DNA from: an uncultured Prevotellaceae bacterium
Lineage (GTDB): Bacteria; Bacteroidota; Bacteroidia; Bacteroidales; Bacteroidaceae
Direction: 5' to 3'
DNA length: 64,000 nt
Assembly (NCBI GenBank): GCA_947166305.1
Contig: CAMVDV010000009.1
Coordinates: 11,619-75,618, forward strand
Positions 3,011-24,682 of this stretch are shown piece after piece (positions within the stretch are counted from its first letter, which is position 1; every line of letters starts with the position of its first letter). The position numbers and the translations under genes were made by a program. Below the pieces are notes generated by a model that searched no databases, was not told the origin of the DNA, and worked only from the letters and a program-made list of their open reading frames with translations.

Positions 3011-4642
3011 ATGAGATTAAAGGCGACGGCCATCGTGCTGGCTTTCCTGACGACAGCAGGAGCATCAGCAGACATTGACAAAGCATTAGAAACCTTCGAC
3101 GAGCAGCCCGATGTGGCCACAGCCACTGGCTTCTTCGACGAACTCCTGAAGGAAGAATTCATCGACGAACAAGTTCGTTTCCCCATAGGCACACCCCCCG
3201 ACTCGCTGCAGCAGCAAGTGTGGTACTGGGCAGCCGAATGGTTCTACGACAAACAGCAGTATGAGAAGGCCGAAGCCTACGCCCTGAAAGCCCTGCCGAA
3301 GTACCATCCGTCCAATCCCGAGAAGGCCGACTGCCTCAACACCCTTGGCTGCATCTACGTCCGCCTCAGCGATTTCAAGCAGGCGGCAAGCTATGCCAGG
3401 CAAAGCGTGGAGATAGAAATGCAAGGAGGCAACCACGACCGCATATCCTCGAGCCTCAACACCCTGGCCGGCATTTACATGGCAGGATATCAGGCTAAAG
3501 AGGCAGAAGACATCATCCTCCAAGCCCTCGCACATGCAGAGCAAGCCGACAATCCGGGCCGTAAGGCTATCATCCTGGGCATGGCCTCAGAGATTTATCA
3601 CACGCTGGGTAACGACGAGAAGGCACTCTCCTACGCTGAGCAGGCCATCGAGCTGGAGAAACAACTGAACCGCCCCCAAAAGCTCCTGATACGCCTTTCG
3701 CAGAAAGGGTCGGCACTGCTCGGCCTTCATCGCTACGAGGAGGCAGAAGCCATCTACCGCCAGATAGCTCCACAGCTCAAGCAGATGGGCGACTATCATT
3801 CCTACGCTATCGCCCTCAACCACCTCGGCATGTCCCTTCTCTGCCAAGAACGGCAGCAGCAGGCCATACCTTATTACAGGGAAGCCGCCGACCTCTTCTC
3901 GCGCATGGGCGACCTCTACAACGAAATCCATTCGCACCGAGGACTCTACGAAAGCTACTGGGAACTGAATCCCGACTCGGCGAAGATAGAACTCGACCGC
4001 TTCGACTTGCTCAAGGACTCCCTCTACACGCACTCCACCGCCGAGGCTCTGTCGCGCTACAACGCCGAATTTAGCAACGACGTGTTGCAGCAGGAGAACA
4101 AGGAAGTGAGGCAAGCGCATCGCCGCACCATCATCCTCGGCACAGTCCTCTTGCTGCTGATAGCAGTCGGTGCGTGGCTTGCCATTCTCTACAGCCGTCG
4201 TCGCTGGCAGAGGCAGATGCAGGAACTGATAAAGGAAGTGGAAAAGACCCTCTCTAACTCTTCCTTAAAGAGAGAGGACTCAGCGAAGGAACTCCCCCTA
4301 AAGGGGGTCGGGGGGTCTGAAGAGTCTTTCCTCATGCGCGTCATCGAAGCCGTCAACGAAGCGATGCCTCAGGGCAACTTCGGCGTAGAGCAGATTGCTG
4401 CCGAGCTTGGCATGAGCGTGCAGACATTCCGTCGCCGTCTCTTTGACGCCGCAGGCGAGTCCCCGAAGTCCTTCATCCAAGCCATTCAGATGGAGCGAGC
4501 CGTAAAACTCCTTTCCGAAAAGCCCGACCTTTCCATCTCGCAGGTGGCAAATCTCTGCGGTTTCGACGAGGCAAGTTCCTTCGGACACACCTTCCGACGC
4601 ATCTACGGCTGTTCGCCTTCCGAATACAAAAAAACGCGATGA
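3011..4642 (+). CDS. Membrane-anchored TPR-repeat sensor with C-terminal AraC-type HTH
   Basis: Signal-like N-terminus, TPR-like repeats, TM helix TIILGTVLLLLIAVGAWLAILY, then an AraC HTH (SVQTFRRRLF..., ISQVANLCGFDEASSFGHTFRRIYGCSPSEY). Confidence 0.85.
   Translation: MRLKATAIVLAFLTTAGASADIDKALETFDEQPDVATATGFFDELLKEEFIDEQVRFPIGTPPDSLQQQVWYWAAEWFYDKQQYEKAEAYALKALPKYHPSNPEKADCLNTLGCIYVRLSDFKQAASYARQSVEIEMQGGNHDRISSSLNTLAGIYMAGYQAKEAEDIILQALAHAEQADNPGRKAIILGMASEIYHTLGNDEKALSYAEQAIELEKQLNRPQKLLIRLSQKGSALLGLHRYEEAEAIYRQIAPQLKQMGDYHSYAIALNHLGMSLLCQERQQQAIPYYREAADLFSRMGDLYNEIHSHRGLYESYWELNPDSAKIELDRFDLLKDSLYTHSTAEALSRYNAEFSNDVLQQENKEVRQAHRRTIILGTVLLLLIAVGAWLAILYSRRRWQRQMQELIKEVEKTLSNSSLKREDSAKELPLKGVGGSEESFLMRVIEAVNEAMPQGNFGVEQIAAELGMSVQTFRRRLFDAAGESPKSFIQAIQMERAVKLLSEKPDLSISQVANLCGFDEASSFGHTFRRIYGCSPSEYKKTR
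4246..4317. repeat. Multi-hairpin element copy inside the TPR/AraC CDS (72 bp, in frame)
   Basis: Reads gaccctctctaactcttccttaaagagagaggactcagcgaaggaactccccctaaagggggtcggggggtc and encodes TLSNSSLKREDSAKELPLKGVGGS. Confidence 0.85.
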
Positions 4643-4803: not shown

Positions 4804-4977
4804 ATGGCACTCTCAGAAAAACAACGAGCCGCTCACCAGCTCGCATCAGACTACCTCAGCTTCCTCGCTCAGCAGGAGGCTGTGGTGGACAGACTTTTCT
4901 GTCGCAAGTGGAAGGAAATAGAGCCTCAGATAGAACAACTCATCGAACGGAAGATCAAGGAATACCTCGCCTCGTAG
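4804..4977 (+). CDS. Candidate small protein, 57 aa (MALSEKQRAAHQLASDYLSFLAQQEAVVDRLFCRKWKEIEPQIEQLIERKIKEYLAS)
   Basis: The ORF is below the 60-aa track cutoff and was found by reading the sequence. GC and GC3 rise sharply at the ATG compared with the AT-rich flank. It looks helical and ends 62 nt before the giant gene. Confidence 0.45.
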   Translation: MALSEKQRAAHQLASDYLSFLAQQEAVVDRLFCRKWKEIEPQIEQLIERKIKEYLAS

Positions 4978-5038: not shown

Positions 5039-8000
5039 ATGAAGACAAACCTAACATTTGCGAGAATCACAATGGCCCTGGCCATTGCATTGTTCCCGTT
5101 CTTGAAGGCCAATGCCTGGGATTGGGAGTGGACCGACACGTGGGGCGAAGCCGTTGCCTGGTGCGAAGAATGCGGAAACGAGTACATTATCTACGCCGAC
5201 AACTCTGCCGAGGCCGAGTCCGCTGCCGAAGACCTCTTCTGCAGCGACTGCGGCTGCTGCTCGGAAGATGTCAACATGGACTGCTATCGCGAGCACCATT
5301 GCCAGTTCTGCGATGGATGCATCGACAATGGAGAGTACCACGTAGGCATCTACAATCTGTTTGACGAGTACATACACTACGATTGTGCCATCGAACTCAT
5401 CGAATCCGGCGACGTCGATGCCTGCAGCTATTGCCACGAACTCTTCGGCGAAGGCGCCGTAGAGTGTGACTGCGGTGTGGGCGACAAGCACTGTACGGAC
5501 TGCTCCGAATCGAAGTGCGAGAAGTGCGGCAAGTGCTTGCTCATAGCCGGTGACGAGACCGATGCCGCATCGGGCGACGCCTGCATCGACCATGGCATTT
5601 GTGGCGAGTGCATGCCCGATGCCTCTGCCGATGACCAGACGCACTGTCGTATATGCTTCAACTGCGACGAGGACATCTGCGATGAGTGCGGCATGTGCGA
5701 GAGCTGTGCCGTATACGAGGAGCACTGCCCCGAATGCGGCTACTGCTTTGGCGACGAGGTGCAATGGTGCGCCGACGATGGGGAGCACTGCGTCAACTGT
5801 TGTAAAGACAACGGATGGTTATGCCCGGCTTGCGAAAGATGCGTGGACGGCGCAGGCATCTACATTTGCGACGACTGCGGCATGTGCGAAGAGTGCTGCC
5901 TGAGCGAGTCTGAGGGAGAAGGCTGCATACATGGCATTTGCACCGCCTCCTCAGAGTTCTACGACCACCTCTGCCCCGAGTGCGGCGAGTGTCCTCAGGA
6001 CGAGGAATGCGACTACTGCGGTCTCTGCATCAACTGTCAGACTGGCTATCACTGCGAGCACGAGCTCTGTCCAGACGGCTCTGAATGGGACGACCACGTC
6101 TGCCCCGACTGCGGTGAGTGCTTCGACGACGGCGAACTATGCGAGTTCTGCGGCCTCTGCGAAAACTGCCGCGAGCACTGCGAGCACGACTTCTGTCCTG
6201 AGAACGACGATGACAGCGACCACTTCATCTGCAACCAGTGCGGCGACTGCTTCGAGGCCATAGATCGTTGCGACGAGTGTGAGCTCTGTCTCGTCTGCTG
6301 TGACGACAACACTCAGTCCATGGGCTGCGACCACGGCTTCTGCGTCGTGAGCGACGACTTCGAAGAGCATTGGTGCTATGAGGACGATCAGTGCCTTGAA
6401 CTCTGCGAGCACGATCCGGAATGCACCCATTCGAATGTCACCTTGGACTACGCCATCAACGGCAATGCCCACTGGCGTGTCTGCGAAGACTGCGGACTCA
6501 CCGTCGACAAGGCACAGCACACAGGCGGCGAGCCTGTCACGTTGACGTCACCCAACGCTGCCACGCACACCAATGGCACAGCTCAGGTGAACTGCATCGT
6601 CTGCAACTACAAGATGGGCATCGTCCCCATCCCCTACGTTGAAGCACCCGCCGACGGCAGTCCGTACATTATTATACAGCCTACCGACTACACAGGCAAG
6701 ACCAACACCGCAGCATGGAAGGAGGAAGAAGATGACCGCTACGCCACCTTCAAGGTGAAGGCAGGCGGCGAAGGACTCTCCTATCAGTGGTATTGTCGCT
6801 ACGGCACCGGCAGCGGCACTAAACTCAGCGACGACAGCTACACACTAGGCACGCAGACGCCGACGCTCAAGACGCTGGTTTATGGCGAAGACTGCGAAAG
6901 GCAGAACCGCAACATCTATTGTATAGTAAGCAACAGCAAGGGCAGCGTCACCTCCGACGCCGCCTACTTCAAGGCAGAACATGTCTTCGGGCGCTACACC
7001 AAGAAGGACAATGAAACGCACGAGAACCACTGCTTCGGCGAAGGATGCAGCGTCGTGAAAGCCACCTCCAAGCACCGCTTCACGGAGTGGACGCTTGTAC
7101 GTCCTGCCACATCCTCCGAGACAGGATTGCGCGAGCAGCAGTGCATGGACTGCGCTTACAAGAAGAGCGAGAGCATCCCGATGGTTGAGCCCGACCACGT
7201 CCACAGCTACGACATAGCGAAGTACAATATGTCGCAGCACTGGTTCGTCTGCGCCTGCGGCATTGCCGGCCCCGATGCTGCCGTCGACCATGTATTCGAT
7301 GAGAGCGAGGTGGTTACCCCGGCAACCGAGACAAAGAGGGGCGAGAACAGGATTATCTGCAGCGCCTGCGGCTTCTTCAAGACAGAGAAGACCGACAAGC
7401 TGCCGCACGTACATGACTGGTACACGTTCGGAGAAATAAGTATTGTCTTGCCAAACGGTCATTCGGGTCCCGACCCGAAGAAGGGCAGCTACGGACCGAA
7501 CTCGCACACCATCAAGTGCAAGGGCTGCAATGAGAAGAAGACCGACCGACACGTTTGGGGTATGTTTGAATGCATGAGGGATGCCAAGGTTCAAGGCAAC
7601 GACACCATCGCCGGAAGGATTGTGCGCTACTGTGATATATGTTCCTACAAGGAAGAAAAGTTCTATCCCCTTGGCTCATGGCCCATCATGATTGCAGGCG
7701 GCACAGCTTACAAGGGACTCACTAACAGAGCTGGTCAGGTGATAAAATGGATTCCTGCCGCTTATGCCAAGAAGGGCGACAAGATAGAAGTTGCTTACGA
7801 TGCGCTTGCTGCCAGGTCGCTCGGGGACAATCAGCCTCAGAAGTTCGTAGAGTGGGTGGACGGCGCAAGCTGGATCGGCGAGACGAACATTCCTTGGGAC
7901 AATGGTCGGAGTAGCATCGACCTGCCTCGCCTTACCTTCCGCCTGAGCCGTACTACTCGCCGATATGGCTTCACGATGCCCGACGGCCCGGCCACCATCT

Positions 8001-9631
8001 TTGCCGTCACCGAGGCATGCGACCACAGCGGCAGCACGAAGCAAACCGCTCGCGTGGAGCCTACTTGCAGCAGCCACGGCTACGAGCCCAGCACGCTCTG
8101 CGCTGACTGCGACGAGGTTCTTGAGGAAGGCGCACGCATTCCTGCACTTGGGCACGACCTGCCCAGCACGCCTATCGCAGGAACCGAAGTCGTGGAGTAC
8201 TGCACGACATGGGTTCAGGATTATAATCAGTATGGAAAGCCGAACACCGCTACGCACGGCTACACGGGCGACTTCCTCTGCAACCGTTGCGGCCAGACGG
8301 TTAAGGGCGAGCCGACGCCCCTCCGCCATGGGAAACACGACAAGAACAATCAATACATAAGGCCTGGATATATTTGGACTAGCTATCAGAAATGGGTGGA
8401 GGCGACGAATCCCCCCACCTGCACCAAGGCTGGATACGAGGATGATCTCTATTGCATCTACTGCAACAAGCTTGTTCAGAAGGGCGAGCGCGTAGAAGCC
8501 CACGGGCATGACTGGGAGTCATGGTACGTAGTGCGCGAGGCCACGACGAAGGTGAAGGGCATGGAGCAGCGCGTCTGCGCCTACGACTATTCGCACGTCG
8601 AGACACGCATCACTGACTACAGCGGTCCGGACTACACGCTGAAGCCCGAAAGGCAGAAGCTCCGCTTCGAATGGACCTACGGAGAGCCTGTTCCGTCGCA
8701 GACCATCACGTTCAAGTCCACTGGCCGCGACAGCATCGGTTCCATTGAGTATGCCGAAGAGCCCAACGGTTACCTCGACGTGACCGTGGACGGCATGACC
8801 ATCACCGCCAAGCCTAATATCGACAATGTAAAATGGGAACGTAGCGACATGGAATACGACGTAGTAGTGACAGACCTTCTCACACCGGCAAACGAGACCA
8901 TCGAAAGCTTCACTGTTCCCGAGATTAAAGCCACCTGCATCATCAAGAAGACGCCCGAGAAGTACTTGCTGACCGTGGAAGACGGCTTGGCCACGACCTT
9001 CACCATGAGCAGACCCGAGTGGACTTACAGCACGGACAGGAGCAACATGCTGAAGGTGCGCGGCGGTGAGTTCGTAGAGCTGGAGCCTGAGGACGAATGG
9101 AAGCATGACTTCCTGCGTTGGGAGGTGATAAAAGGCTCCGACGACATACAGGAGGATGTGCATGAATCCAGGACGAAGAATACACGCTTCGTCATGTCGC
9201 CTGCCGACGTCACCATCCGCGCCATCTACAGGAAGAACGCTCCGACCATGAAGTTCAAGCAGACGGAAGTGACGGCAAGCGTGGAAGAGCCCTTCAAGGA
9301 GCCTGCACTCATCACGATACCGGGCAAGCTGCCTGTCACCTACAGCAGCTCCGACGAGAGGGTTGTACGGGTGAATCCCAAGACTGGCACCGTATCCTTC
9401 ATGGGAGCCGGCACCGCCGTCATCACGGCGACCTCTGCCGAGACCAACCACTATGCTTCCTCGGCAACGTCCTACACGCTCATCGTGCCGCAGGACTTCA
9501 TCACAGGAATAAAGACCCTCTCCGGCTCTCCCTTAAAGGGAGAGGGCATGTTCAACACTGGCGGCCAGCGCGTCGGCGACAGTTACCGTGGCATCGTCGT
9601 GACGAAGAACAAGAAGGAACTGAAGAAGTGA
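5039..9631 (+). CDS. Secreted 1530-aa cysteine-rich repeat protein with a C-terminal Big_2-like Ig domain and a short T9SS-like tail
   Basis: Signal peptide MKTNLTFARITMALAIALFPFLKANA. About 80 Cys fall in residues 42-462 as CxxC modules, with further His/CxxC modules after that. A Big_2-like segment (VTYSSSDERVVRVNPKTGTVSFMGAGTAVITATS) precedes the tail MFNTGGQRVGDSYRGIVVTKNKKELKK. Confidence 0.85.
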   Translation: MKTNLTFARITMALAIALFPFLKANAWDWEWTDTWGEAVAWCEECGNEYIIYADNSAEAESAAEDLFCSDCGCCSEDVNMDCYREHHCQFCDGCIDNGEYHVGIYNLFDEYIHYDCAIELIESGDVDACSYCHELFGEGAVECDCGVGDKHCTDCSESKCEKCGKCLLIAGDETDAASGDACIDHGICGECMPDASADDQTHCRICFNCDEDICDECGMCESCAVYEEHCPECGYCFGDEVQWCADDGEHCVNCCKDNGWLCPACERCVDGAGIYICDDCGMCEECCLSESEGEGCIHGICTASSEFYDHLCPECGECPQDEECDYCGLCINCQTGYHCEHELCPDGSEWDDHVCPDCGECFDDGELCEFCGLCENCREHCEHDFCPENDDDSDHFICNQCGDCFEAIDRCDECELCLVCCDDNTQSMGCDHGFCVVSDDFEEHWCYEDDQCLELCEHDPECTHSNVTLDYAINGNAHWRVCEDCGLTVDKAQHTGGEPVTLTSPNAATHTNGTAQVNCIVCNYKMGIVPIPYVEAPADGSPYIIIQPTDYTGKTNTAAWKEEEDDRYATFKVKAGGEGLSYQWYCRYGTGSGTKLSDDSYTLGTQTPTLKTLVYGEDCERQNRNIYCIVSNSKGSVTSDAAYFKAEHVFGRYTKKDNETHENHCFGEGCSVVKATSKHRFTEWTLVRPATSSETGLREQQCMDCAYKKSESIPMVEPDHVHSYDIAKYNMSQHWFVCACGIAGPDAAVDHVFDESEVVTPATETKRGENRIICSACGFFKTEKTDKLPHVHDWYTFGEISIVLPNGHSGPDPKKGSYGPNSHTIKCKGCNEKKTDRHVWGMFECMRDAKVQGNDTIAGRIVRYCDICSYKEEKFYPLGSWPIMIAGGTAYKGLTNRAGQVIKWIPAAYAKKGDKIEVAYDALAARSLGDNQPQKFVEWVDGASWIGETNIPWDNGRSSIDLPRLTFRLSRTTRRYGFTMPDGPATIFAVTEACDHSGSTKQTARVEPTCSSHGYEPSTLCADCDEVLEEGARIPALGHDLPSTPIAGTEVVEYCTTWVQDYNQYGKPNTATHGYTGDFLCNRCGQTVKGEPTPLRHGKHDKNNQYIRPGYIWTSYQKWVEATNPPTCTKAGYEDDLYCIYCNKLVQKGERVEAHGHDWESWYVVREATTKVKGMEQRVCAYDYSHVETRITDYSGPDYTLKPERQKLRFEWTYGEPVPSQTITFKSTGRDSIGSIEYAEEPNGYLDVTVDGMTITAKPNIDNVKWERSDMEYDVVVTDLLTPANETIESFTVPEIKATCIIKKTPEKYLLTVEDGLATTFTMSRPEWTYSTDRSNMLKVRGGEFVELEPEDEWKHDFLRWEVIKGSDDIQEDVHESRTKNTRFVMSPADVTIRAIYRKNAPTMKFKQTEVTASVEEPFKEPALITIPGKLPVTYSSSDERVVRVNPKTGTVSFMGAGTAVITATSAETNHYASSATSYTLIVPQDFITGIKTLSGSPLKGEGMFNTGGQRVGDSYRGIVVTKNKKELKK
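9514..9546. repeat. Partial multi-hairpin element (first hairpin) inside the giant CDS tail
   Basis: Reads gaccctctccggctctcccttaaagggagaggg and encodes TLSGSPLKGEG in the same phase as the other coding copies. Confidence 0.75.
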
Positions 9632-9726
9632 CGCCAAGGAAAGTCCCATTCTCCATCACCCAAAGTGGTGGGGGAGGGGACTTCCGCACGAAGACCCCCT
9701 GACCTCCTTTAGGGGGAATTCAGAAC

Positions 9727-9857: not shown

Positions 9858-12377
9858 CTACAGTCTTCCCGAGCGTGAGATGAGGGAGTGTAGGCGGTCG
9901 GTCAGTGTGTCGGCCGAGAGCAGGCGCGAGATGGGCAGGTGCATCCTGTAGCGCCAGTAGTTCTTGGGATTGGCTGGTACGTTGATACGCTCCTCTTCCG
10001 GATGCGGATTTCGCAGGTCTTTATCCACCGAAAGCCAGTCCTGCAGACTGATGAGGCAAAGCATTGAGGGACTGCCGAGGTGCTGTGCCACGACTTCCTC
10101 GCAAAGCTCTGGGGTGAGGTCGGCCGGGGCTTCGCCGTCGTGCCCAAGCACATTGTTGTAGAAAAGCTGTGAGCGACGGACGTTCTCTCTCCACCAGAGG
10201 CGCAGCGTCGGCATGTCGTGGGTGAAGATGGTGTCGACGCTCTGATAGGGATTCTCCTGCAACGAGGCGAATGGGACGCCGTAGGCTTTCGGCATAGCCT
10301 GTATCTCGAGGCTCAGGATGCCGAGCTTCTGCATGACGGGGCCGACGCAGGCCGGCACCATTCCCAAGTCCTCGCCGCACACCAGCATGTTCGTTGCGTC
10401 GATGAGGGCGGGCAGTTTCTTCATGGCCTCAGCAGCCCAGAAGTCGTTGTGGCGGCGGAAGAAGTAGTCTTCGTAGAGGCGGATGAAGGCATTCTGCTCG
10501 TAGCTTCCGAGAGCATTCCATGCGTCCCGGCCAATCACGCCGATGCGGGGGTGGAAGAGTCCTGGCTGACAGTGCGGCACGAACAGTTCGTCGCGGAAGG
10601 TCACGCCGTAGGAAGCGATTTCTTCCTTCGTGAGAGGCAAGGCAGGAGAGAACTGTCCGAGCAGTGCATCGGGGTTCCCCTTGGGAATCTGCCAAATGCG
10701 GAAGAAGCCCAGGATGTGGTCGATGCGATAAGCACCGAAGTACTGTGCCATGCCTTGCAGCCGTTTCCTCCACCACTGATAGCCGTCGGCTGCCATGCGT
10801 TCCCAGTTGTAAGTGGGGAAACCCCAGTTCTGTCCGGACGGGGAGAAATCGTCGGGGGGAGCACCAGCCGTCATGTTCATGTTGAAGAGATGCGGCTCGT
10901 GCCATGCCTCCACGCTCTGTTGGCTGATACCGATGGGCAAGTCGCCTTTCAGGAAAATGCGTAGGCGGCGGGCATGGTCGGCGGCTTCGGCAAGCTGGCT
11001 GTGCAGCAGATGTTGCACGAAAGCATAGTAGCCGACTTCATGTCTGTGCCTTTCGACGTAGGCATCCACCTCGTCGCTGTTATAGGCAGACAGTTCGGGC
11101 CACTCGCTGAAGCGTGCCGTGCCATAAGTGTCGCGCAGGTGGCAGAAGACTTGATAGGGTTTGAGCCAAGACCAAGACCCCCCAACTACAGACCCCCCAT
11201 CCCCCTTTAGGGGGAGTTCCGCCGCTGAGTCCTCTCCCTTTAAGGGAGAGTTAGAGAGGGTCTCCTCCTCATAGAGCAGATGCAGGTACTCCTCCTTCAT
11301 TTTGATGACCTCCACATAGTCGAGGGCAGGCAATGCGTTCAGCTTCTGCCAGCGCTTCTTGAACTTTTCGAGCATCTTGGCATCGCGAAGAGGCAGTCTG
11401 CGCAGGTCGATGTAGATGGGATGCAGGGCATGGACGCTGATGGCATTATAGGGATAGCTGTCGGTCGGCGTGCGATTCTGCGTGGTGTCATTGATGGGAA
11501 GGAGCTGCACGGCGTGCATTCCGGCACGGGCTGCCCAGTCGCACATCTCTTTCAGGTCGCCGAAATCGCCTACGCCTTGGCTGCCTTCCGACTTCAAAGA
11601 GAACAGAGGAACGACCAGTCCCGCTGCCTTCCAAGGCGATGACGACAGACGGACCTCGCCATCCATCATGCAGACGACGTGGTTCTGCTCTGGCACGACG
11701 GACGGACATTGTCGATTGTCGCCTTCTTCCCACCTTGCCGAATGCTTCTCTCCTGTCACAACATATTTATATTGGAAAGGCAGACGCAGGCCGTCGGCAC
11801 TGATGGAGAGCAGCCATTCCTGCTGACTCGACGGCGTCATGGGCAAGGCGCGACGCACATCCCAGGCTCCGAGCGAAGGCTGGTCGCCGACGAGGGCAAC
11901 CCTTTCGCCTGCAGAAAGATGGGGAGCCTGCACGCGGAAAAGGAACGTGCGGGGGAAAAGGGCCACTCCTGCCGCCTGTCTCACCTCCATTCCCGACGCA
12001 ATCTGATAGGCTGCCGTGTAGCGATAAGAGTCGTCGGGCCTGTCGCGCCAGTGGTCGTAGAGGAAATAGGTGCGGGCATCGTCGGCAGGGAAGAGCCTCG
12101 GCACGGCATCCCATTCGCGTCGAAGCACACGCATCTGTTCCGTTTCGCCCCACGCCGACTGGCCCTTCGATGGACTCGACGGCACGATATTGTAGGAATA
12201 TCTGAACTGTTCGCCGCGAGCACGGAGGATGCTGATGCCTTTCCACATGAGTCCATCCGACGTTTCCAAGGGGATGCGATGCCGGTAGGCCTTGCCATCC
12301 GCAGAAAGGAAGCAAAGTTCCACCTCAAGGCTCTCTCCCCAATTCGTTCTGTATTCAATCGAAAAATGTAAAGTCAT
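9858..12377 (-). CDS. malQ: 4-alpha-glucanotransferase (GH77 amylomaltase) with N-terminal CBM20-like starch-binding modules
   Basis: GH77-like body (GDLPIGIS, DDFSPSGQNWGFPTYNW, YRIDHILGFFRIW, CGEDLGMVP). The N-terminus looks like CBM20. I chose the start at MTLHFSIEY because a -7 box lies 28 nt upstream; the ORF-track TTG at 12407 is unlikely. Confidence 0.9.
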   Translation of the reverse strand: MTLHFSIEYRTNWGESLEVELCFLSADGKAYRHRIPLETSDGLMWKGISILRARGEQFRYSYNIVPSSPSKGQSAWGETEQMRVLRREWDAVPRLFPADDARTYFLYDHWRDRPDDSYRYTAAYQIASGMEVRQAAGVALFPRTFLFRVQAPHLSAGERVALVGDQPSLGAWDVRRALPMTPSSQQEWLLSISADGLRLPFQYKYVVTGEKHSARWEEGDNRQCPSVVPEQNHVVCMMDGEVRLSSSPWKAAGLVVPLFSLKSEGSQGVGDFGDLKEMCDWAARAGMHAVQLLPINDTTQNRTPTDSYPYNAISVHALHPIYIDLRRLPLRDAKMLEKFKKRWQKLNALPALDYVEVIKMKEEYLHLLYEEETLSNSPLKGEDSAAELPLKGDGGSVVGGSWSWLKPYQVFCHLRDTYGTARFSEWPELSAYNSDEVDAYVERHRHEVGYYAFVQHLLHSQLAEAADHARRLRIFLKGDLPIGISQQSVEAWHEPHLFNMNMTAGAPPDDFSPSGQNWGFPTYNWERMAADGYQWWRKRLQGMAQYFGAYRIDHILGFFRIWQIPKGNPDALLGQFSPALPLTKEEIASYGVTFRDELFVPHCQPGLFHPRIGVIGRDAWNALGSYEQNAFIRLYEDYFFRRHNDFWAAEAMKKLPALIDATNMLVCGEDLGMVPACVGPVMQKLGILSLEIQAMPKAYGVPFASLQENPYQSVDTIFTHDMPTLRLWWRENVRRSQLFYNNVLGHDGEAPADLTPELCEEVVAQHLGSPSMLCLISLQDWLSVDKDLRNPHPEEERINVPANPKNYWRYRMHLPISRLLSADTLTDRLHSLISRSGRL
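11176..11262. repeat. Multi-hairpin element copy inside malQ (87 bp, in frame)
   Basis: It is the reverse complement of the 2889-2976 copy, so it has the same orientation relative to its host gene. It encodes TLSNSPLKGEDSAAELPLKGDGGSVVGGS. Confidence 0.9.
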
Positions 12378-16855: not shown

Positions 16856-19800
16856 CTATCTCGTCAGGGAGAACTTCATGGTCATGCCGAAGTCCTGCGT
16901 GATGGTGGGATAGCTGCTGCTGGAGAGGAGTGGGGCAGAGCGTTGGCGGTCGTAGTAAAGGCTCAGCGTGACCATACGGCTCAGCGTGTAGTCCACCTGC
17001 GCGCTCGTCTTGAAGGCTTTGCTGCCGCTTGTTGCCTCGCAAAGGTTCGTCTGGAGGTCGCGCTTGATGGCGCTCTGGTTGCGGATGCTAAAGTCGAAGC
17101 GCAGGTTCAGGTCGTGGGCTATCTTCTGTCGGCCCGAGTTCTTTCCCCTGGCACCGCCTTGCCTGTCGTTGTTGTCGAGGTCGCCGTTCAGGTTGCCGGC
17201 ATTCCCCTTTCCCTTAGCCTTGCTGCCAGCCGCCACCTTCTCGCTGGCCTTCCGCAGTCGCAGCACGTCGCTCAGCCGGAAGTCATTGATCTTGTAGCCC
17301 CATCCGATGACGAAGTCCTTGGAACCCGTCTCCGTTAGCTGCGCACTCGTCATGCTCAGGTTGAGCACACGCGACGTCTTGTATTCCACCTTGGCGGTCA
17401 TGTTGTTGTTCAGCGTAGCGTTGATGCCGATGAGTGGCGAGAAGTTCTCGTTGATGCTGACGGTGCTGACGTCGAAGAGGCTGCCCGGCAGATAGCCGCC
17501 CGTCGTGGTGTTCTGCACGAAGCCAAGGCCTCCGCTGCCCATACACTCTATCCATGAGCTGTAGGAGTGGTAGGAGCCGACCGCATAGATGCTCTTGTAG
17601 GCATGGGTGAGGTTGACGCTCTTGAAGTGATCGCGCACCCATGGCAGATTACTCAGTCCCTTGTAGTTGATACTCCAGTTGGGCAGCATCTTCCAGAGCG
17701 ACGGGAAGATGTCGAGACCGCTGCCTCCTGCATAGGCATTGAGGAAGGCCGGCACCATGACGTCGGCACTGTACTTGTTCACGGTGCCGTTCTCGGGATT
17801 GAACGTGCCGCTCATGCCCGTGCCTTGCGGATAGCGTATGCCATGATAGCGGGCTTCGACGCGTTGCTGATAGACGTCGAGGTTCTCCTGGAACTTCTGG
17901 AACGTGCGGCTGTAGTAGCCGTTGTCGGCAGAGCCAATGCTTGCGAAGGCAGAGCCAATGCTGATGGTCGTCATGTTGAACGAACCGCTGTGCGTGGGCG
18001 GAGTGCCGTACATGTATTGAATACTCTTGTTCCTGTTGTCTGTCCGACTCATGTTGAGGTCGATCTTGAGGTCAGTGAAAGGCTCAAGCGTCATCTTCAC
18101 TTGCACGTCTTCCGTCTTGCTTGTCGTGGCGGGAGTCGCCACGCTGTCGCTGCCAAGAAGCCACCCTCGCTCCTTAGCCTTGTCGAGATAGGAGTCGTCC
18201 ACAAAGCCGAATGCAAAGTCGAGGCCCGGCGTGAAGACTCCACCCAGTTTCCTTTGTCCGAGCATGTCGCCCACGTCTGGCAGGAAGCCCGGCACGGAGA
18301 GGTTGTAGGTGTTGCGGTAGGTGACGCTCACGTTGCGCACCATCATCAGGAAGCGTGCCGCCGTCTGTGCCAAACCGTACCACTTCTGTTCCGAAAGTTT
18401 GGGCAAGGCAACGACATTGAGCCTTACGCTCGTGGTGTCGACCGGTGTCTTTACAATCTTGATGCTGTTCTCGTCAACCTTCTTGAACTTGATGTTGTAG
18501 GCAAAGCCACTGCTGTCGCGAGCCGTCACGCGGACGCGCTTCGACTTCTGGCCGTGGTTTATCACGAGATCGGAGTCGGGGAAGAGCGTAATCTCCTGCA
18601 CGAAGCCCTTGTTCTCTGGTTTCTTCTTGGTGCTGACGCCTGCCACGTTGCTCTGCTTGGTGGTTCCCTTCTGTCCTCTTGCCAAGATGCTGTCCACGGG
18701 TTCGCCTGTCTCCATCGATTCTTGCTCTGCTTTCTTGCGTGCATCCTTCTCCTTCTCCTTTTCCGCCTTCTTGGCTTTGTCCTCTCGCTCCTTTTCCATA
18801 CGCTTCTGATTAGCTCCGGCTCGGGCATTAGAGGCAGAGAATCGCTTGTTAGCCTCCTGCAGGAACTTGCTATGGTTGTAGAGTTTCTCGAGGTCAATCC
18901 TTCCGTTGATGTTGACGGTGCGCTGGGTGTTGATGTTGTTGCCAAGCGACGGACGTCCCTGACGCTCGGCTCCACGCTTCCAAGTGTAGTTGGCAGAGTA
19001 GGAAGCATCGGCAGATACCCAGTCGAGCACAGGAATCTTCTCGAGCGGAAGCTTGTAGCTTAGCTGCGTATTCTGCGTGTAGTCGAGCGGACGGCCAAAG
19101 TGTCGCAGGCTCATCTTCACGGAGTCCTTCCACGCTTCGTAGCGGTCGGGATAGAGGTCCTTGTTGATTTGTGTATAAGGCTCTTCAATCTCAGCCCTCG
19201 TGCCGCTCTGGAAGGAGAAGTGCAGGGCCTTGAAGATGTCCCACTTGAGCGAGAAGTTGCGGTTCCAAGTCCAGTTCTGACTGAAGGTGGCAGGCAGGGA
19301 TGAGAAGTCGCCAGGGTTTTCGAGGTCGCGCTCTTGAAGCTCGTAGTAGTTACGATTCATGTCGGTGGAGAACGTAATGCTCTGCGGCGCAAAGGCGAGG
19401 TTCTGTGCCTTGATGATGTCCAGCCATTTGCTCTTTCCCTTAAGGTTCTTGAATGGCTCCCATGACTTCCAGTTCGGGCTCCAGGAATAGTTGATGTTTG
19501 CCTTCCAGTTCAGTTCGCGTTCATAGACCGTCGTTTGCCCTTCCGTGTATTGTGTGGAACGACTGAAGCCGAAGGTGAAGTTGGCAGGGTCGTAGGGCAT
19601 GGGGTGCTTGGTGGAACTGATGTTGAGTCTTACACCATTGAAGGAGAGGTTCTTGTTAGTCTCCGTATGATTAGTCAGGCTTTTGAGTGAGTCGCGCTGC
19701 TGTTGGTTGGCAAGTGCGTCGAGGGCATCACCGAGGAGCATGTCGGTGTCGAAGGGATTGTACTTTGGCGAAACCTTCTCCTTACTATAACTATAGTACA

Positions 19801-22800
19801 TCGGCACGGTAAGCTTTGCCTTTTCGGGAAGGAGTCGGCCGAGGTCGAAGTTGGTGGTGATGGCATAGTTGAGGTTATCCTCGTTCTTTCGTTGTGCCAC
19901 ACTTTGCTCGATGCCGCCGAAGCCGGACGTTATCATCTTGGCCGTGGCGTTGACCGAGCCGAGGTCGCTCAGTTGTACTTGCAGGCTTCCCTGTGCTGCC
20001 CAACCGCCGTTGTTGCTGAATTCTTGCAGACGGAGTTCGTTGGCCCAGACCTCGATGCTTTTCGTCTTGCCGCTGTTGTTGCGGATGCCTATCATGATGG
20101 TCTTCACTTCGCCGAGCGTCGGGTTGCCCATGATGGAGATACGGTTGTTGGGATGATTCTCGTCGTAGGTCGTGAAGAGTCGGTTCATGGAAGCTATGCC
20201 GAGACTTGCTTGTGAGTTGCGTTGCTTCTTGAGGTCTGTGAAGAGGTCGAAGTTGATGTCGACCATATTCTCTGAAGGCCATACTGCCAGACAGCCTGCT
20301 GCGCTGTAGGTGTCGTAGTTGCCTTCGGGCGTAATCCTCAAGGGTACTTCGTATTCATAGTAGTTACTCTTGTAGTCGGAGCCAAGACGGATGAAGACGC
20401 TGCACTCGCCGTCGGCAGTGTTGGTGATGTTCTCTGCCAAAGCATTGGCATGGACATACATCTGCAGATGTTTGTACTGCCGCATGTCGTAGTTGCAGTT
20501 CTTGTATACAGCCTTGGCTTCGCTTCCTCCAAGGTTGCGTGCCACCATGCACATGGCTTGCTCGTTAGCCTCGACGAGTTGCGACTGCGAAGGGTCGGTG
20601 ATGCGCGTGATGCCGGGAGGCAACACATAGTTGACGGGCTGCTTGTCGTTGTTCTCTTCGATGCAGACGGTGCTGACTTCGAGTGTGCCGTTTCCTGTCG
20701 AAGCGACGTTGCCGTTGTAGAGCGGTTGCTGATAAGTCCTCCAGTCGCCTTGCACGAGGTCGAGGGTGGCGAGGCGGAGGATGGTTTCTTCCTCGAAGCC
20801 CGTCATGAAGATACGCATGAAGCGGATGCTTGTGAAGTCGCGGATGCTGCCTTCCTTGCTTTCGTATTCTGTGAGAGGGATGCGGAAGAGATACCATGTG
20901 CAATCTTCTGTGTTGCCGTTACGAAGCTTAACGCTTGCTATGCGCTTGTCGGCGATGTGGTTTTGTCCCACAACCATGTCTTCGGGACGAATGCTGACGT
21001 GGTACTGATAGTATTTCTCGTATTCGTTGAGCGTGTAGTCTTGATTGATGTCTTCCACGTCGGGTGTCGACTTCCATGCTGTCTCGTAGGATTCCGGACT
21101 CGTGTCGGAGTCTGCGCTGTTGCCTTGCGGCATGTTGATGCGCTTGTAGCGGTTGAGGATGGAGGTCTGCAGTTGGTCGAAGTCTGTGCCGCGATAGTAA
21201 TGATAGTTGTCGTTGGCGGGGTCATTGTAGAGGCTGTCATAGACTGCGGGCGACACTTTGCTTTGCATCTGTTGGAGGTAGTCGGTGTAGAGGCTGAAGT
21301 TGCGTTCTTCCTCATCGTTCAGTCCGTTGAGGCCGACATCTTGGCGAGCGCGTGCTCCTGCTTCGTTGTTGAAGGCATAAGTCACACTGCTGCTGTTGGG
21401 GATGCGTCCCCAATACCCTTCGGTGAAGTATTGTGGATTGCCATCGACAGGCATTCCGCTTTCAAAGTATTTCTTTCCGTCCTTCAGGATATCTTCGGAT
21501 ACTTCGCCGAGATTGAAATAGAGGTCTCCTCCGTGATTGCCCGGCTGGTTGCGTTTGTAGATGAAGGGATCCATCATCCAGAACTCGATGTATTGGATGT
21601 TCTGTGCCTCGAAGTCTGTGTTGTCGAGCTTGCGCATCATGCCGCCCCATGTTTCCTGCGGATGCTTGAGGTGTCCGTCCTGGTCAACATCTGTGGAGAG
21701 ATTGTATGCACCACGTTCTTTTGGATAGAAGGCGAGGTTGAGAACGTTCAGTCCCGTGGCGCTGGTGTAGTTGTTCTGCGACTTTTGTGGATAGAGCTCG
21801 CGCTCATAGACTTCGCGGACGTAGTGGCTCGAGAGTTGGTCGAGGTCGCTTTTGATGTGGCTGGGAGTGAGTGTACTGCTGCGTCGCGTGAAAATGGGAT
21901 CTACGTAGTACCAAGCCAGGAGCGAGCGGTTGTAGCCGTAGGCAGCGTCGCCCGTCAGCTTGCTTTCGGCAAACATGCTTGGTGTGCTCGACATGCTCCA
22001 ATAGGTTGGTTGCGTCAGACTGTTCTTGATGCTGCTGCTCTCGAAGTCGTCGAGGTAGGAAGCATCGCCTTGTACGCTGTGGTTCTGACCAGCGATGAGC
22101 TGTGCGAACTCTCCGTTGAAGGCGATGAAGCTGGGCTGTGTACACTGGATGAGCGGCAGTTTGTCGATGATGTTGGTGAGCCATTGGCTTTCTTTCTTCC
22201 AGCTGATGTGGAAGCCCCAGAGTGTGTTCTTCAGCGGTTCGTTGCCCATGCTCACCTTTGTTGTGAGGGGTTGTTCGCTGAGATACATCAGCGTGCCGCC
22301 CACGGTGAAGTTCTTGTTGATTTCGTAGTCAAGGTTCAGTCCGAGCATCGTCTTGCGTTGCATGCCGTAGGTGTCGTTGCTTTCCACTGAAGCGCTGATG
22401 TTCGTGCCTGCTTCGATGAGGCTTTGGTTGATGATCGTGACGCGCCCCATGTTGTAGTCCACCGTGTAGTCTGTGTTCTCGGTGAGTGTAGTTCCGCCGG
22501 CAGTGACGACAACGGAGCCTCGCGCCACGTTGGTCACGCCGAGGTCTATCTCTCCTGCATTCGTGCCTTTGTAACGGCCGGTGAGCATGAACTTGTCGTG
22601 TTCGGAGATTTGTTTAGCTACGGTCTTCGTGCTGTCGTAGAGTTCGCGGAAGCAATACTTGTTGGCGAGAGCCGGGTCGCCTATCCATTTGGCCAGGTGT
22701 TCGCCGAAAGGTTCTGCCACGGGGAAGATGATGCGTCCCTTGCTGATGGTGTAGCCTTCCACGAAGTCGAACTGGCCGTTGGGATGCGGATTGTTCTTTG

Positions 22801-24682
22801 CGTCCAGTCGGTCGAGGTTCATGGCCCTGATGAGGATGGTGTTCTTGAGCTTTTCTTCGGGCAGATAGCTCAGATAGACACCAGTGGAGTCGCTCTGGTA
22901 CTTGATGTCGAGGCGGAACTTGTCGGCCATCACTTTCTGAGTGCCGAGGTAATAGACGTTCTTCATCATCAGTCGCCAAGTGGGAAGTGCGGGGCTGCCG
23001 GTGGTTCCTTTAAGCAGTTTGACGAAGAGAGCCTTCGAGTTGTCGGTGATGTCGCTGGCAAATTCGCCCACTTGGTACGTTGTGCCCATGTAGGTGTACT
23101 CGTAGGCCACGGCCAGCACGTCGTCCACCTGCAGTGTGCTGGTAAGGCTGACGTAGCCAAGGGCATTGTTGACGGTGTACTCCGACGTAGAGAGCTTCCT
23201 GGCAGCCTGCAGCTTTTCGTAGTCGACGCTTCCGTAGAACTTGTTGATGCCGTCCAGTATGTTTGTGGCTTGCGATATGTCGCGGGCGTCGGCGTAGTCA
23301 GTGACCATACGCTCGTATTCCGTGTTCGAGCGGTTGCTCGGCACGTTGATGCCGGCGTTCGTCCAGAGTCCTGTATTATAGATGTAAGAGGGTTCGCCGA
23401 GGTCGGCCAGTGCGATGACGTTGCGGTTGTTCTCAGTCTTGCCGCTTTTGTTCGTGACCCAAATCTCCACGCGCTTGATGTTGATGCCGCTCGAGATGGT
23501 GGGCAGCGACTCCATGTTCTTGTCGTAACGCTCGCGGAAGAAGTGGGAGAGGAAGAAGTGACGGTTCTCTTCGTAGTTGGTTGCACTGAACTCAAAGTTG
23601 GTGGTCTGCGAGCCGCCCTTGCTGTTTACGCTGGAGCTGGCGCTCTTCTTCTGGCTGACTACGGACTGAATCTTCAGCTTGCCGAACTGTACGTCAGTGC
23701 GCAGACCGAAGAGGCTGCTCACACCTGAGACGAGGCTTATGTTCGAGGGGAACGATACGTTGCCGGCTTCGATGAGCTTGACGATTTCGTCTTCCTTGCC
23801 GTCGTATTTGAGTTTGAGGTTCTGGGCGTCGTAGTCGAAGGTGGCCTGCGTGTTGTAGTTCAGGTTCATGTTGATTTTGTCGCCCACCTTACCGTTGAGG
23901 CTGAGGTTGATCTTCTCGTCGAAGTCGAAGCCGATGGTCTTGCGCCTGGATGCAGCGAGGGCAGGATTGTTCACCTTCTTCGAGTTGATGCCCATCTTGA
24001 GCTCGGCGCTGCCTTGTGTCTTTATCTGCACACCGCCCGGGCCGAATATCTTTTCTGCAGGGCCGAGGTCGAAGTGCATGTCGGTGAAGTCGAACTTGTT
24101 TTTGCCTTCGGCTTCAAAGGCTTCTGCATTCTTCTGCCGCCAGTATTGCTGCATGCTGTTCTGCAAGGACCACTGCTGATACTCTTCGGGCGTCATCAGC
24201 AGGGGAGCGTTGATGAATCCCGTGGCAGTGCCGAGCGTATATCCAGACCTTCCTGGCAGGATGCTTCCTGATGAAGCTCCGGCTGCTCCTGTCTGCGACG
24301 AGCTTGACGATGAAGTGCTTCCGCCGCGGGTGCTGCTTGTCTTGGGCATAGAGCTTTGCCCGCCTTTTGTGCCCTGACCCTTTCCTGCACCGCCGCCTTC
24401 GCCTTCGGCGAGCGTGGTGCCAATGGTGTAGGTGTTGTCCTTTTCGTCGTAGATGACCTCGGTCTTCAGGTTGTCGGGGTCTTTCAGATCGGCTGTTTTC
24501 TTGCGGAGGTTCTTTGTGTTGTCGGCACCGGTCTTGCGTACGGAGTAGCGAGGTTTGCCGTCGGGCACAGTGTCAGCAGGTACAGACTGTGCCTGCCACC
24601 CTGTACCTACCATAGAAGGTGCTGCCGGCACGATGATACACAGCAGCACCACGAGAGCTAATATGAATTTGCGCGCGCTCAT
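16856..24682 (-). CDS. sprA: T9SS translocon protein SprA
   Basis: 2608-aa outer-membrane protein with a signal peptide, an N-terminal low-complexity G/S region, and size and sequence typical of SprA. Recognised by overall similarity from memory. Confidence 0.9.
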   Translation of the reverse strand: MSARKFILALVVLLCIIVPAAPSMVGTGWQAQSVPADTVPDGKPRYSVRKTGADNTKNLRKKTADLKDPDNLKTEVIYDEKDNTYTIGTTLAEGEGGGAGKGQGTKGGQSSMPKTSSTRGGSTSSSSSSQTGAAGASSGSILPGRSGYTLGTATGFINAPLLMTPEEYQQWSLQNSMQQYWRQKNAEAFEAEGKNKFDFTDMHFDLGPAEKIFGPGGVQIKTQGSAELKMGINSKKVNNPALAASRRKTIGFDFDEKINLSLNGKVGDKINMNLNYNTQATFDYDAQNLKLKYDGKEDEIVKLIEAGNVSFPSNISLVSGVSSLFGLRTDVQFGKLKIQSVVSQKKSASSSVNSKGGSQTTNFEFSATNYEENRHFFLSHFFRERYDKNMESLPTISSGINIKRVEIWVTNKSGKTENNRNVIALADLGEPSYIYNTGLWTNAGINVPSNRSNTEYERMVTDYADARDISQATNILDGINKFYGSVDYEKLQAARKLSTSEYTVNNALGYVSLTSTLQVDDVLAVAYEYTYMGTTYQVGEFASDITDNSKALFVKLLKGTTGSPALPTWRLMMKNVYYLGTQKVMADKFRLDIKYQSDSTGVYLSYLPEEKLKNTILIRAMNLDRLDAKNNPHPNGQFDFVEGYTISKGRIIFPVAEPFGEHLAKWIGDPALANKYCFRELYDSTKTVAKQISEHDKFMLTGRYKGTNAGEIDLGVTNVARGSVVVTAGGTTLTENTDYTVDYNMGRVTIINQSLIEAGTNISASVESNDTYGMQRKTMLGLNLDYEINKNFTVGGTLMYLSEQPLTTKVSMGNEPLKNTLWGFHISWKKESQWLTNIIDKLPLIQCTQPSFIAFNGEFAQLIAGQNHSVQGDASYLDDFESSSIKNSLTQPTYWSMSSTPSMFAESKLTGDAAYGYNRSLLAWYYVDPIFTRRSSTLTPSHIKSDLDQLSSHYVREVYERELYPQKSQNNYTSATGLNVLNLAFYPKERGAYNLSTDVDQDGHLKHPQETWGGMMRKLDNTDFEAQNIQYIEFWMMDPFIYKRNQPGNHGGDLYFNLGEVSEDILKDGKKYFESGMPVDGNPQYFTEGYWGRIPNSSSVTYAFNNEAGARARQDVGLNGLNDEEERNFSLYTDYLQQMQSKVSPAVYDSLYNDPANDNYHYYRGTDFDQLQTSILNRYKRINMPQGNSADSDTSPESYETAWKSTPDVEDINQDYTLNEYEKYYQYHVSIRPEDMVVGQNHIADKRIASVKLRNGNTEDCTWYLFRIPLTEYESKEGSIRDFTSIRFMRIFMTGFEEETILRLATLDLVQGDWRTYQQPLYNGNVASTGNGTLEVSTVCIEENNDKQPVNYVLPPGITRITDPSQSQLVEANEQAMCMVARNLGGSEAKAVYKNCNYDMRQYKHLQMYVHANALAENITNTADGECSVFIRLGSDYKSNYYEYEVPLRITPEGNYDTYSAAGCLAVWPSENMVDINFDLFTDLKKQRNSQASLGIASMNRLFTTYDENHPNNRISIMGNPTLGEVKTIMIGIRNNSGKTKSIEVWANELRLQEFSNNGGWAAQGSLQVQLSDLGSVNATAKMITSGFGGIEQSVAQRKNEDNLNYAITTNFDLGRLLPEKAKLTVPMYYSYSKEKVSPKYNPFDTDMLLGDALDALANQQQRDSLKSLTNHTETNKNLSFNGVRLNISSTKHPMPYDPANFTFGFSRSTQYTEGQTTVYERELNWKANINYSWSPNWKSWEPFKNLKGKSKWLDIIKAQNLAFAPQSITFSTDMNRNYYELQERDLENPGDFSSLPATFSQNWTWNRNFSLKWDIFKALHFSFQSGTRAEIEEPYTQINKDLYPDRYEAWKDSVKMSLRHFGRPLDYTQNTQLSYKLPLEKIPVLDWVSADASYSANYTWKRGAERQGRPSLGNNINTQRTVNINGRIDLEKLYNHSKFLQEANKRFSASNARAGANQKRMEKEREDKAKKAEKEKEKDARKKAEQESMETGEPVDSILARGQKGTTKQSNVAGVSTKKKPENKGFVQEITLFPDSDLVINHGQKSKRVRVTARDSSGFAYNIKFKKVDENSIKIVKTPVDTTSVRLNVVALPKLSEQKWYGLAQTAARFLMMVRNVSVTYRNTYNLSVPGFLPDVGDMLGQRKLGGVFTPGLDFAFGFVDDSYLDKAKERGWLLGSDSVATPATTSKTEDVQVKMTLEPFTDLKIDLNMSRTDNRNKSIQYMYGTPPTHSGSFNMTTISIGSAFASIGSADNGYYSRTFQKFQENLDVYQQRVEARYHGIRYPQGTGMSGTFNPENGTVNKYSADVMVPAFLNAYAGGSGLDIFPSLWKMLPNWSINYKGLSNLPWVRDHFKSVNLTHAYKSIYAVGSYHSYSSWIECMGSGGLGFVQNTTTGGYLPGSLFDVSTVSINENFSPLIGINATLNNNMTAKVEYKTSRVLNLSMTSAQLTETGSKDFVIGWGYKINDFRLSDVLRLRKASEKVAAGSKAKGKGNAGNLNGDLDNNDRQGGARGKNSGRQKIAHDLNLRFDFSIRNQSAIKRDLQTNLCEATSGSKAFKTSAQVDYTLSRMVTLSLYYDRQRSAPLLSSSSYPTITQDFGMTMKFSLTR

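Follow-up and report, generated by a model that had tools for sequence, protein, structure and literature searches.

What could hold together a protein region that is almost one-fifth cysteine when an anaerobic gut bacterium exports it? We asked this of a gene at 5039..9631 in a 64,000-nucleotide stretch of DNA (the window) from an uncultured Prevotellaceae bacterium, which encodes a secreted surface protein with its cysteines crowded behind the signal peptide. Extracellular small cysteine-rich repeat domains are considered a eukaryotic, disulfide-based invention, and the low redox potential found in rumen and hindgut makes disulfides unstable but leaves thiolate-metal sites stable. We found that the region consists of tandem modules whose ligand pattern, as read from the sequence, points to metal sites rather than disulfides, approximately three tetrahedral ones per module and most likely for zinc.

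The cysteine-rich region and its family

The gene and its cysteine-rich part are divided as follows.

5039..9631, plus strand: whole gene of the secreted surface protein, 1530 amino acids (aa) and 111 Cys, from the list of open reading frames (ORFs)
5039..5116, plus strand: Sec-type signal peptide, MKTNLTFARITMALAIALFPFLKANA, with the predicted cut before WDW, read from the sequence
5117..5629, plus strand: N-terminal Cys-rich tip, residues 27-197, in which irregular CxxC units come after a small beta/alpha cap
5630..6373, plus strand: conserved core of tandem Cys/His modules, residues 198-445, supported by a module hidden Markov model (HMM), AlphaFold2 (AF2) and the ratio of nonsynonymous to synonymous substitution rates (dN/dS)
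5813-5971, 5963-6100, 6092-6226 and 6221-6373, plus strand: canonical modules 1-4 within the core, placed by the module HMM
6374..6448, plus strand: terminal partial module (CYEDDQCLELCEHDPEC...), read from the sequence

Positions 5162-6424 of the window correspond exactly to residues 42-462. Our recount gave 79 Cys in these 421 residues (18.8%), in agreement with the initial annotation, which had put them at about 79 and roughly 19 percent; the strongly acidic background that it described was also found, with 113 Asp plus Glu against 10 Lys plus Arg, and there are 21 His. Exactly two residues separate neighboring Cys in 37 of the 78 gaps, and the region contains 11 CxxCG knuckles. The other 1068 residues of the protein hold 32 Cys, mostly as isolated CxxC pairs. 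Overall the ORF is 7.3% Cys, and every other credible ORF in the window has at most about 2.8%. The signal peptide carries neither a twin-arginine motif nor a lipobox Cys, as judged by reading its sequence.

An HMM seeded with the four canonical target modules and iterated on the family placed four full modules on the target, at residues 259-311, 309-354, 352-396 and 395-445, and more degenerate CxxCxxC units lie upstream, at about residues 203-261. The tandem arrangement noted earlier was thus recovered, with four canonical and several degenerate modules, and the three peptide modules quoted for it all occur in the translation. The same repeat had been said to be visible in the DNA, and this stood in part: the quoted strings are found at 5726, 5972 and 6101 (0 expected in shuffled sequences), but Tandem Repeats Finder detected no module-length repeat (about 130-150 bp) and reported no more than two short arrays, with periods of 9 and 18. 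Because the module repeat is undetectable in the DNA apart from such short motifs, the duplications are probably old.

A word-indexed homology search with residues 27-470 returned 5 relatives. This understated the family, so that an exhaustive profile search was needed; covering 1.84 billion cluster representatives, it returned 197 clusters at E<=1e-3, 62 of them at E<=1e-30, and the family amounts to about 200 clusters at 50% identity. We retrieved 151 proteins. Members are typically 1000-2900 aa long, and in most of them a signal peptide is closely adjoined by a Cys-rich span of 60-180 Cys; any RRx-hydrophobic motif was present in 7 of 133 N-termini. The nearest species-level relatives are from Prevotella/Prevotellaceae metagenome-assembled genomes (MAGs), at about 72% identity. 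In the source annotations the relatives are merely 'Ig-like domain-containing', 'S-layer homology domain-containing' or 'hypothetical' proteins, and a description of the family was not found in the literature on cysteine-rich or CXXCXXC extracellular bacterial proteins and extracellular zinc fingers.

A scan of the species genomes in GTDB, made with a 6-sequence alignment, gave 78 loci, nearly all in MAGs from rumen, omasum, caecum or faeces, with a Murdochiella sp. as the sole isolate. The Bacteroidales carriers belong to Prevotella, Bacteroidaceae, Muribaculaceae and Salinivirgaceae, and the Clostridial carriers to Oscillospiraceae, Ruminococcaceae, Lachnospiraceae, Acutalibacteraceae and Anaerovoracaceae; some MAGs have two or three paralogues. 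Relatives were found only in rumen and gut Clostridia, other Bacillota and Bacteroidales, which, with the Sec-type signal peptide, bears out the earlier description of a secreted protein of an anaerobe. In one Clostridial homologue (P0005, Oscillibacter sp. MAG, locus L001, 8001-11877) the product is 283 aa long and is found on 20 contigs; a 966-aa ORF starts 125 bp after it, and the same 90% cluster includes a full-length member of 1381 aa. These pieces and their full-length relative suggest that a frameshift or a nonsense mutation has split the gene in a lineage that is widespread. Directly upstream of this homologue is a two-component system.

Pfam-A 2025, NCBIfam 20.0 and PHROGs, searched with the whole protein, gave no match at threshold over residues 27-470. 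The Pfam scan returned Big_2 alone (residues 1433-1472), NCBIfam gave 0 matches at E<=1, and PHROGs matched the Ig region alone. A Pfam scan of 83 single modules returned nothing above threshold, and no sequence in the Protein Data Bank (PDB) matched the Cys region significantly. These results support the earlier view that the modules are not a named bacterial domain, no characterised domain having matched them. We conclude that the Cys-rich region very probably belongs to a genuine, unnamed domain family.

The exact protein is recorded in independent NCBI, ENA and Logan assemblies. Its 90%-identity cluster contains 13 other members, among them nine near-full-length variants (1364-1538 aa), eight of which have 109-111 Cys. 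Against L084, a strain variant with identical synteny, dN/dS was 0.30 for the whole gene and 0.033 for the core (residues 198-445), and 110 of the 111 Cys were kept. For the tip (residues 27-197) dN was 0.17 and dS 0.44; the tip varies between strains with its Cys almost all kept, one Cys column (residue 73) being variable. Across ten strain variants, residues 151-500 were the least variable (0-2% variable columns), and variation was concentrated at residues 51-150, 551-700 and 1051-1200. The dS against L084 was 0.26-0.46 at residues 1-200 and 1001-1200, mostly 0.03-0.10 in the rest (range 0-0.10) and 0.21 in the last 30 codons of the gene. Since dS is raised alongside dN at residues 1-200 and 1001-1200, the pattern suggests recombinational mosaicism, not relaxed constraint, and allelic cassettes appear to have been recombined in these two segments. 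In window coordinates, the mosaic divergence between strains falls at 5039-5640, 6690-7140 and 8040-8640. The initial annotation had allowed for degradation of the ORF in related strains; the ORF is intact and, judged by substitution rates, is maintained, with the module core under strong purifying selection.

Ligand positions and predicted fold

With the module HMM we gathered 634 module instances (per protein, 4 in the median and 21 at most), and ligand statistics were taken over the 313 full-length modules. The short consensus is xHxC-x2-CGxC-x6-C-x2-CGxC-x2-C(C)-x8-C-x-[C/H/D/E]-x2-C-x8-H. Written over 51 positions it is x-H2-x-C4-xx-C7-G-x-C10-x6-C17-xx-C20-G-x-C23-xx-C26-C27-x8-C36-x-X38-xx-C41-x8-H50-x, where H50 of each module doubles as H2 of the next. 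This gives twelve ligand positions: C4, C7, C10, C17, C20, C23, C26, C27-or-H35, C36, [C/H/D/E]38, C41 and H50. Conservation among the HMM instances is approximately 100% at C4, C17 and C23, 98-99% at C7, C26 and H50, 94-95% at C20 and C41, 91% at C36 and 84% at C10, and Gly and aromatic positions are conserved as well. The module had been described as about eight Cys plus a conserved His; the His was confirmed, but the Cys number has to be raised to 9-11, within the twelve ligand positions.

C27 occurred without H35 in 266 of the 313 modules and H35 without C27 in 35, whereas both were present in 1 and neither in 11, so that the two are mutually exclusive (r = -0.85; Fisher p = 1.6e-35, a value inflated by related modules). 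The target's two short modules are of the His type, CINC-QTGYH-C and CENC-REH-C. Position 38 holds Cys (110 modules), His (115), Asp (32) or Glu (27), each of which is a metal ligand. The number of Cys per module was 9, 10, 11 or 12 in 49, 122, 103 and 28 modules, respectively, that is, 9 or 11 in 152 of the 313. An odd count in about half of the modules means that the Cys cannot all be in intramodule disulfides. Exactly 12 Cys or His were present at the ligand positions in 196 modules and 11 in 72.

Twelve ligands per module are enough for three tetrahedral sites. Two Cys4 sites could be built from the eight near-invariant Cys, and a third, mixed Cys/His site from C10, C27/H35, X38 and H50; the grouping was not derivable from an analysis of ligand co-loss, which gave a weak association of C10 with X38 alone (r = 0.24). 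With twelve conserved ligand positions and CxxC knuckles, the module has the sequence features of tetrahedral Cys/His zinc-binding domains in general.

A first AF2 run with 6 sequences was poor, with a predicted local distance difference test score (pLDDT) of 56, although residues 27-86 (model positions 1-60) reached 83-91. With a 64-sequence alignment, residues 198-400 were modeled at a mean pLDDT of 92.5 and a predicted template-modelling (TM) score of 0.75, and 171 of the 203 residues were at 90 or above. This model is mostly irregular, with short helices right after the CxxCGxC triplets. The initial annotation had proposed a Foldseek comparison of such a model; run on residues 198-400 against 350,542 PDB chains, it gave no match at E<=1e-3. 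The weak top 50 matches were almost all eukaryotic Zn-binding domains (C2H2 arrays, LIM, PHD, RING and TRAF6; TM<=0.39, E>=0.04), and contained no ferredoxin and no EGF-, LDLa- or TNFR-type domain. Foldseek against BFVD gave nothing meaningful (TM<=0.2 for long alignments), and the matches of the low-confidence first model were uninformative, with weak megalin/LDL-receptor matches among them. Thus, in the model the fold is predicted with confidence and is without a recognisable solved relative.

Competing explanations for the array

We propose that residues ~27-470 would be an array of small metal-stabilised domains of an undescribed family. The protein would be exported unfolded through Sec, and its modules would fold around metal after export, most likely Zn(II), with about three ions per module and about 25 in the whole array. 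The folded array would form a rod or head that is rigid, very acidic, resistant to proteases and independent of disulfides, a structural or binding head at the N-terminus of an adhesin-like giant surface protein, distal to the cell if the protein is anchored at its C-terminus. Such a chemistry fits the reducing rumen or gut habitat of all carriers. We infer that metal is bound, that the metal is zinc, that there are three per module grouped into sites as above, and that the array has an adhesin-head role. We judge it somewhat more probable than improbable that the array works as zinc-stabilised domains. The near-invariant core and the strain-variable tip prompt the speculation that the array has a role beyond that of a spacer, perhaps as a platform for binding.

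Several points weigh against this proposal. The AF2 model contains no metals. Three sites in 45-50 residues would be unusually dense for zinc fingers and closer to metallothionein-like clusters, and bridging thiolates or a different stoichiometry are possible. The Fisher p-value for C27/H35 is overstated because modules in one protein, and proteins in one family, are not independent. Sub-threshold Fer4 matches were obtained with 10 of the 83 modules, and CxxCxxCxxxC occurs in three target modules, which at the sequence level leaves some probability to an iron-sulfur reading. Finally, the near-invariance of the core may point to more than a structural role.

The initial annotation had offered metal knuckles or a disulfide-knotted stalk, and of these two the ligand pattern and the Foldseek neighbors favor metal. 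A stalk of disulfide-knotted repeats, as in EGF, TNFR or LDLa, would be a rigid extracellular spacer; the protein is indeed extracellular and very rich in Cys, as are the eukaryotic Cys-rich repeats, and the first, low-confidence model had the megalin/LDL-receptor matches given above. We consider such a stalk quite unlikely, however, given that the Cys count is odd in about half of the modules, that ligand positions exchange Cys for His, Asp or Glu, with one Cys offset by a His eight residues away, that H50 is 98-99% conserved, and that no disulfide-rich domain is in the top 50 of the high-confidence model. The carriers, moreover, are all gut or rumen anaerobes, living at very low redox potential, and exported proteins of Firmicutes generally exclude cysteine (PMC2823432). 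Membership among EGF/LDLa/TNFR-like repeats or the Myxococcus cysteine-rich repeat was rejected, as the Cys are not even in number, fixed and non-exchangeable and no NCBIfam or Pfam model matched. The array could also be primarily a metal sink of high capacity at the cell surface, and not a structural element, that buffers, scavenges or detoxifies thiophilic metals (Zn, Cu, Cd or Fe) in the manner of metallothioneins. Approximately 100 Cys and His ligands in 420 residues, the excess of acidic over basic residues (113 to 10) and a density of 12 ligands per ~48 residues, which is in the metallothionein range, fit a sink, and with metallothioneins the module shares very high Cys density and the expected metal-thiolate chemistry. 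Classical metallothioneins, however, have neither an ordered fold nor conserved Gly and aromatics, whereas the module is ordered, has a confidently predicted fold and conserves His, Gly and aromatics; the array is always joined to an adhesin-like body of great size with a putative surface anchor, in the target within a protein of 1530 aa; and the vicinity contains neither a metal transporter nor a regulator that responds to metals, the neighbor being a TPR/AraC regulator. We regard a sink as unlikely.

If the modules instead bound [4Fe-4S] or [2Fe-2S] centers, the array would be a ferredoxin-like redox chain at the cell surface. The earlier statement that the pattern is not that of ferredoxin was only partly correct: three target modules embed the ferredoxin spacing CxxCxxCxxxC, owing to their CC doublet, but the hallmark Pro never follows (0 in the window, and 28 of 449 instances in the family). 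Fer4 and Fer4_6 were the commonest Pfam matches (best Fer4_6 E 0.011, below cut-off) because CxxCGLCxxCC embeds this spacing; Complex-I TYKY/NuoI was among the weak PDB-sequence matches, and the anoxic habitat is rich in Fe(II) and sulfide. Yet Fer4 thresholds were never reached, the structural neighbors include no ferredoxin, and Zn sites typically show such His/Asp/Glu substitutions and CxxCG knuckles. The iron-sulfur (Fe-S) cofactor of ferredoxin-type domains is inserted in the cytoplasm, so that its carrier is cytoplasmic or exported by the twin-arginine (Tat) route, whereas the signal peptides here are Sec-type, not Tat, and Fe-S assembly systems outside the cytoplasm are not known. Such an array is therefore very unlikely, and we would give as little credence to Fe-S or mixed Fe/Zn-thiolate centers, ~25 closely spaced ones per protein, that would assemble by themselves outside the cell, in an anoxic gut rich in Fe(II) and sulfide, and act on the surface of strict anaerobes as a redox wire or an oxidant-scavenging shield; an extracellular Fe-S array would, if true, be without known precedent and distinct from multihaem cytochromes. 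Membership in Fer4 was rejected at the HMM and motif level. Many modules share with 2x[4Fe-4S] ferredoxins the CxxCGxCxxxC sub-motif and a predicted short helix after the triplet, but the first triplet lacks a fourth Cys, the triplets are just 6 residues apart, Pro is not conserved and export is by Sec. The CXXC-type zinc finger (MLL/DNMT1/CFP1), with the spacing CxxCxxC-x4-5-CxxCxxC-x8-14-C-x4-C, resembles the module in arrangement: it, too, has two CxxCxxC triplets a few residues apart and then C-x4-C. Module 2 (residues 312-344) matches this spacing exactly, as CPECGEC-x5-CDYCGLC-x8-C-x4-C, and the family consensus, C-x2-C-x2-C-x6-C-x2-C-x2-C-x12-C-x4-C, comes near it, the other target modules having x6-x8 between the triplets against x5 in module 2. 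Descent of the module from this eukaryotic finger (PF02008) is nevertheless barely credible, since hhalign of the module profile with the MLL1 CXXC domain (sequence verified against PDB entries 2jyi, 2kkf, 2j2s and 4nw3) gave a probability of 7.6% over 12 aligned columns, PF02008 was matched by 2 of the 83 modules at E = 6.5, and no CXXC domain structure is in the Foldseek PDB top 50 of the confident model. The module consensus also has no KFGG motif and four extra conserved ligands, and the domain is acidic and extracellular where the finger is basic and nuclear; homology was rejected by HMM, profile-profile and fold comparison.

The zinc-stabilised array that we prefer resembles in kind the LIM, PHD, RING and TRAF-type domains and C2H2 arrays, which are likewise domains of ~45-60 residues with tetrahedral Cys/His sites and CxxC(G) knuckles, often in tandem. 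It differs from them in that no match is significant, in that its 12 ligands make three sites more probable than two, and in that the module is bacterial, Sec-exported, at the cell surface and extremely acidic. A multihaem c-type cytochrome was rejected as a candidate, with one CxxCH in the whole protein and a family median of 1.

Protein body, C-terminus and neighboring genes

Downstream of the array, and around the gene, we recognised the following features.

6449..9334, plus strand: body of the protein, residues 471-1432, nine more CxxC pairs as (H/C)...CxxC...H zinc-ribbon-like units amid Ig-like/beta regions, from a CxxC map
9335..9454, plus strand: bacterial Ig-like domain group 2 (Big_2; PF02368, 25.5 bits against a cut-off of 22.8, C-terminal fragment scanned)
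9485..9628, plus strand: C-terminal tail resembling a sorting domain of the type IX secretion system (T9SS), ...DFITGI...MFNTGGQRVGDSYRGIVVTKNKKELKK, from a shared motif
3011..4642, plus strand: membrane-spanning TPR and AraC-HTH regulator, SusR-like, a candidate regulator (Pfam TPR_12, HTH_18 and HTH_AraC)
4804..4977, plus strand: helical-looking 57-aa ORF directly upstream of the target, called as a gene in L083 and L084
9765..9815, no strand assigned: likely terminator, a GC-rich hairpin with a T-run after it, lying between the target and the GH77 gene, which converge, read from the sequence

The units of the body take the forms H-x-W...CxxCG...H and ...TCxxxGY...CxxC...IPALGH, both of which recur in Clostridial relatives; Pfam gave sub-threshold matches alone on the body (DUF7128, Zn_ribbon_Elf1 and DZR_2). 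The motif of the tail is common to three Bacteroidales relatives (P0006, P0007 and P0010) and a neighboring giant protein in L014. Over its last ~45 residues the target resembles the ends of other giant secreted proteins at related Bacteroidales loci, and the motif-level similarity to neighboring giant proteins covers the last ~30. The last 120 aa and the tails of two relatives gave no NCBIfam match at E<=10, and Pfam scans of the target gave none to a T9SS tail model either, the models being TIGR04183 and PF18962. The translocon protein SprA (2608 aa; SprA_N E = 1e-234) is encoded at 16856..24682 on the minus strand of the window, which means that the organism has a T9SS. Sorting of the target by this system is plausible from its tail sequence.

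Surface-anchor-like C-termini were assigned, by simple motif matching, to roughly a third of the 151 retrieved proteins. In Clostridia the endings are SLH (S-layer homology) repeats, dockerins or a hydrophobic/transmembrane tail plus KRK, and in Bacteroidales a T9SS-like tail. If these assignments are right, the Cys array would be at the cell-distal tip. The signal peptide, the Ig-like/Big_2 body and the putative C-terminal anchor make up the same architecture as in the giant Ig-like surface adhesins (T9SS-, SLH- or dockerin-anchored) of gut Bacteroidales and Clostridia, but no described adhesin domain corresponds to the Cys/His array, with its 60-180 Cys, at the N-terminus.

TPR_SusR is a weak match on the candidate regulator in a precomputed annotation. 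The same regulator is upstream of the homologue in L013 (68% identity), L015 (44%) and L084. By tblastn, the 57-aa ORF is present at 62-71% identity in L008, L009, L010, L011 and L013, ending ~60 bp before the target start, and its place directly in front of the Cys-rich gene is kept in at least six related loci. It has no signal peptide and no family match, and may be a partner dedicated to that gene, a chaperone or a regulator. Apart from this ORF and, in a subset of lineages, the TPR/AraC regulator, no conserved operon was found. The convergent downstream gene, a GH77/CBM20 amylomaltase, is not kept beside more distant homologues, and neighbors at other loci vary, two of them being other giant surface proteins. 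These two, giant secreted repeat proteins in Bacteroidaceae MAGs (L014, 638-4279; L017, 27-4643), lie upstream of the Cys-rich homologue and end in a T9SS-like tail in L014 and in dockerin-like repeats in L017, which suggests that genes for surface proteins occur in clusters.

A palindromic repeat element of ~72 nt with two hairpins (GACCCTCTCTAACTCTCCCTTAAAGGGAGAGG...CTCCCCCTAAAGGGGGA...) occurs at 2859-2974, 4245-4319 and 11189-11263 of the window, with partial copies at 9513-9545 and 9692-9717, and is also present in L084 and L016. Besides its intergenic copies, it lies in-frame within two ORFs, those of the TPR/AraC regulator and of GH77, and there encodes ...SPLKGEDSAAELPLKGDGGS...; a 33-nt piece of it is in the 3' end of the target (SGSPLKGEG). 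The core 17-mer has 4 matches against 0 expected. By analogy, the element is reminiscent of Rickettsia palindromic elements.

Implications for anaerobic surface proteins

The module is a variant of the metal-thiolate mini-domain theme, undescribed so far, rather than a demonstrated new mechanism. The family is widespread in anaerobic gut and rumen bacteria, placing 60-180 Cys beside the signal peptide in secreted proteins of giant size, of which many have surface-anchor-like ends, and is a counter-example to the avoidance of cysteine in exported bacterial, especially Firmicutes, proteins (PMC2823432). The core is compact, at 248 residues, and is predicted with high confidence, and it is hence easy to test. 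If confirmed, the array would give anaerobes a counterpart to the extracellular modules that disulfides stabilise and would add a new fold to the repertoire of zinc domains, and it could be a sizeable extracellular sink in the gut for zinc or other thiophilic metals.

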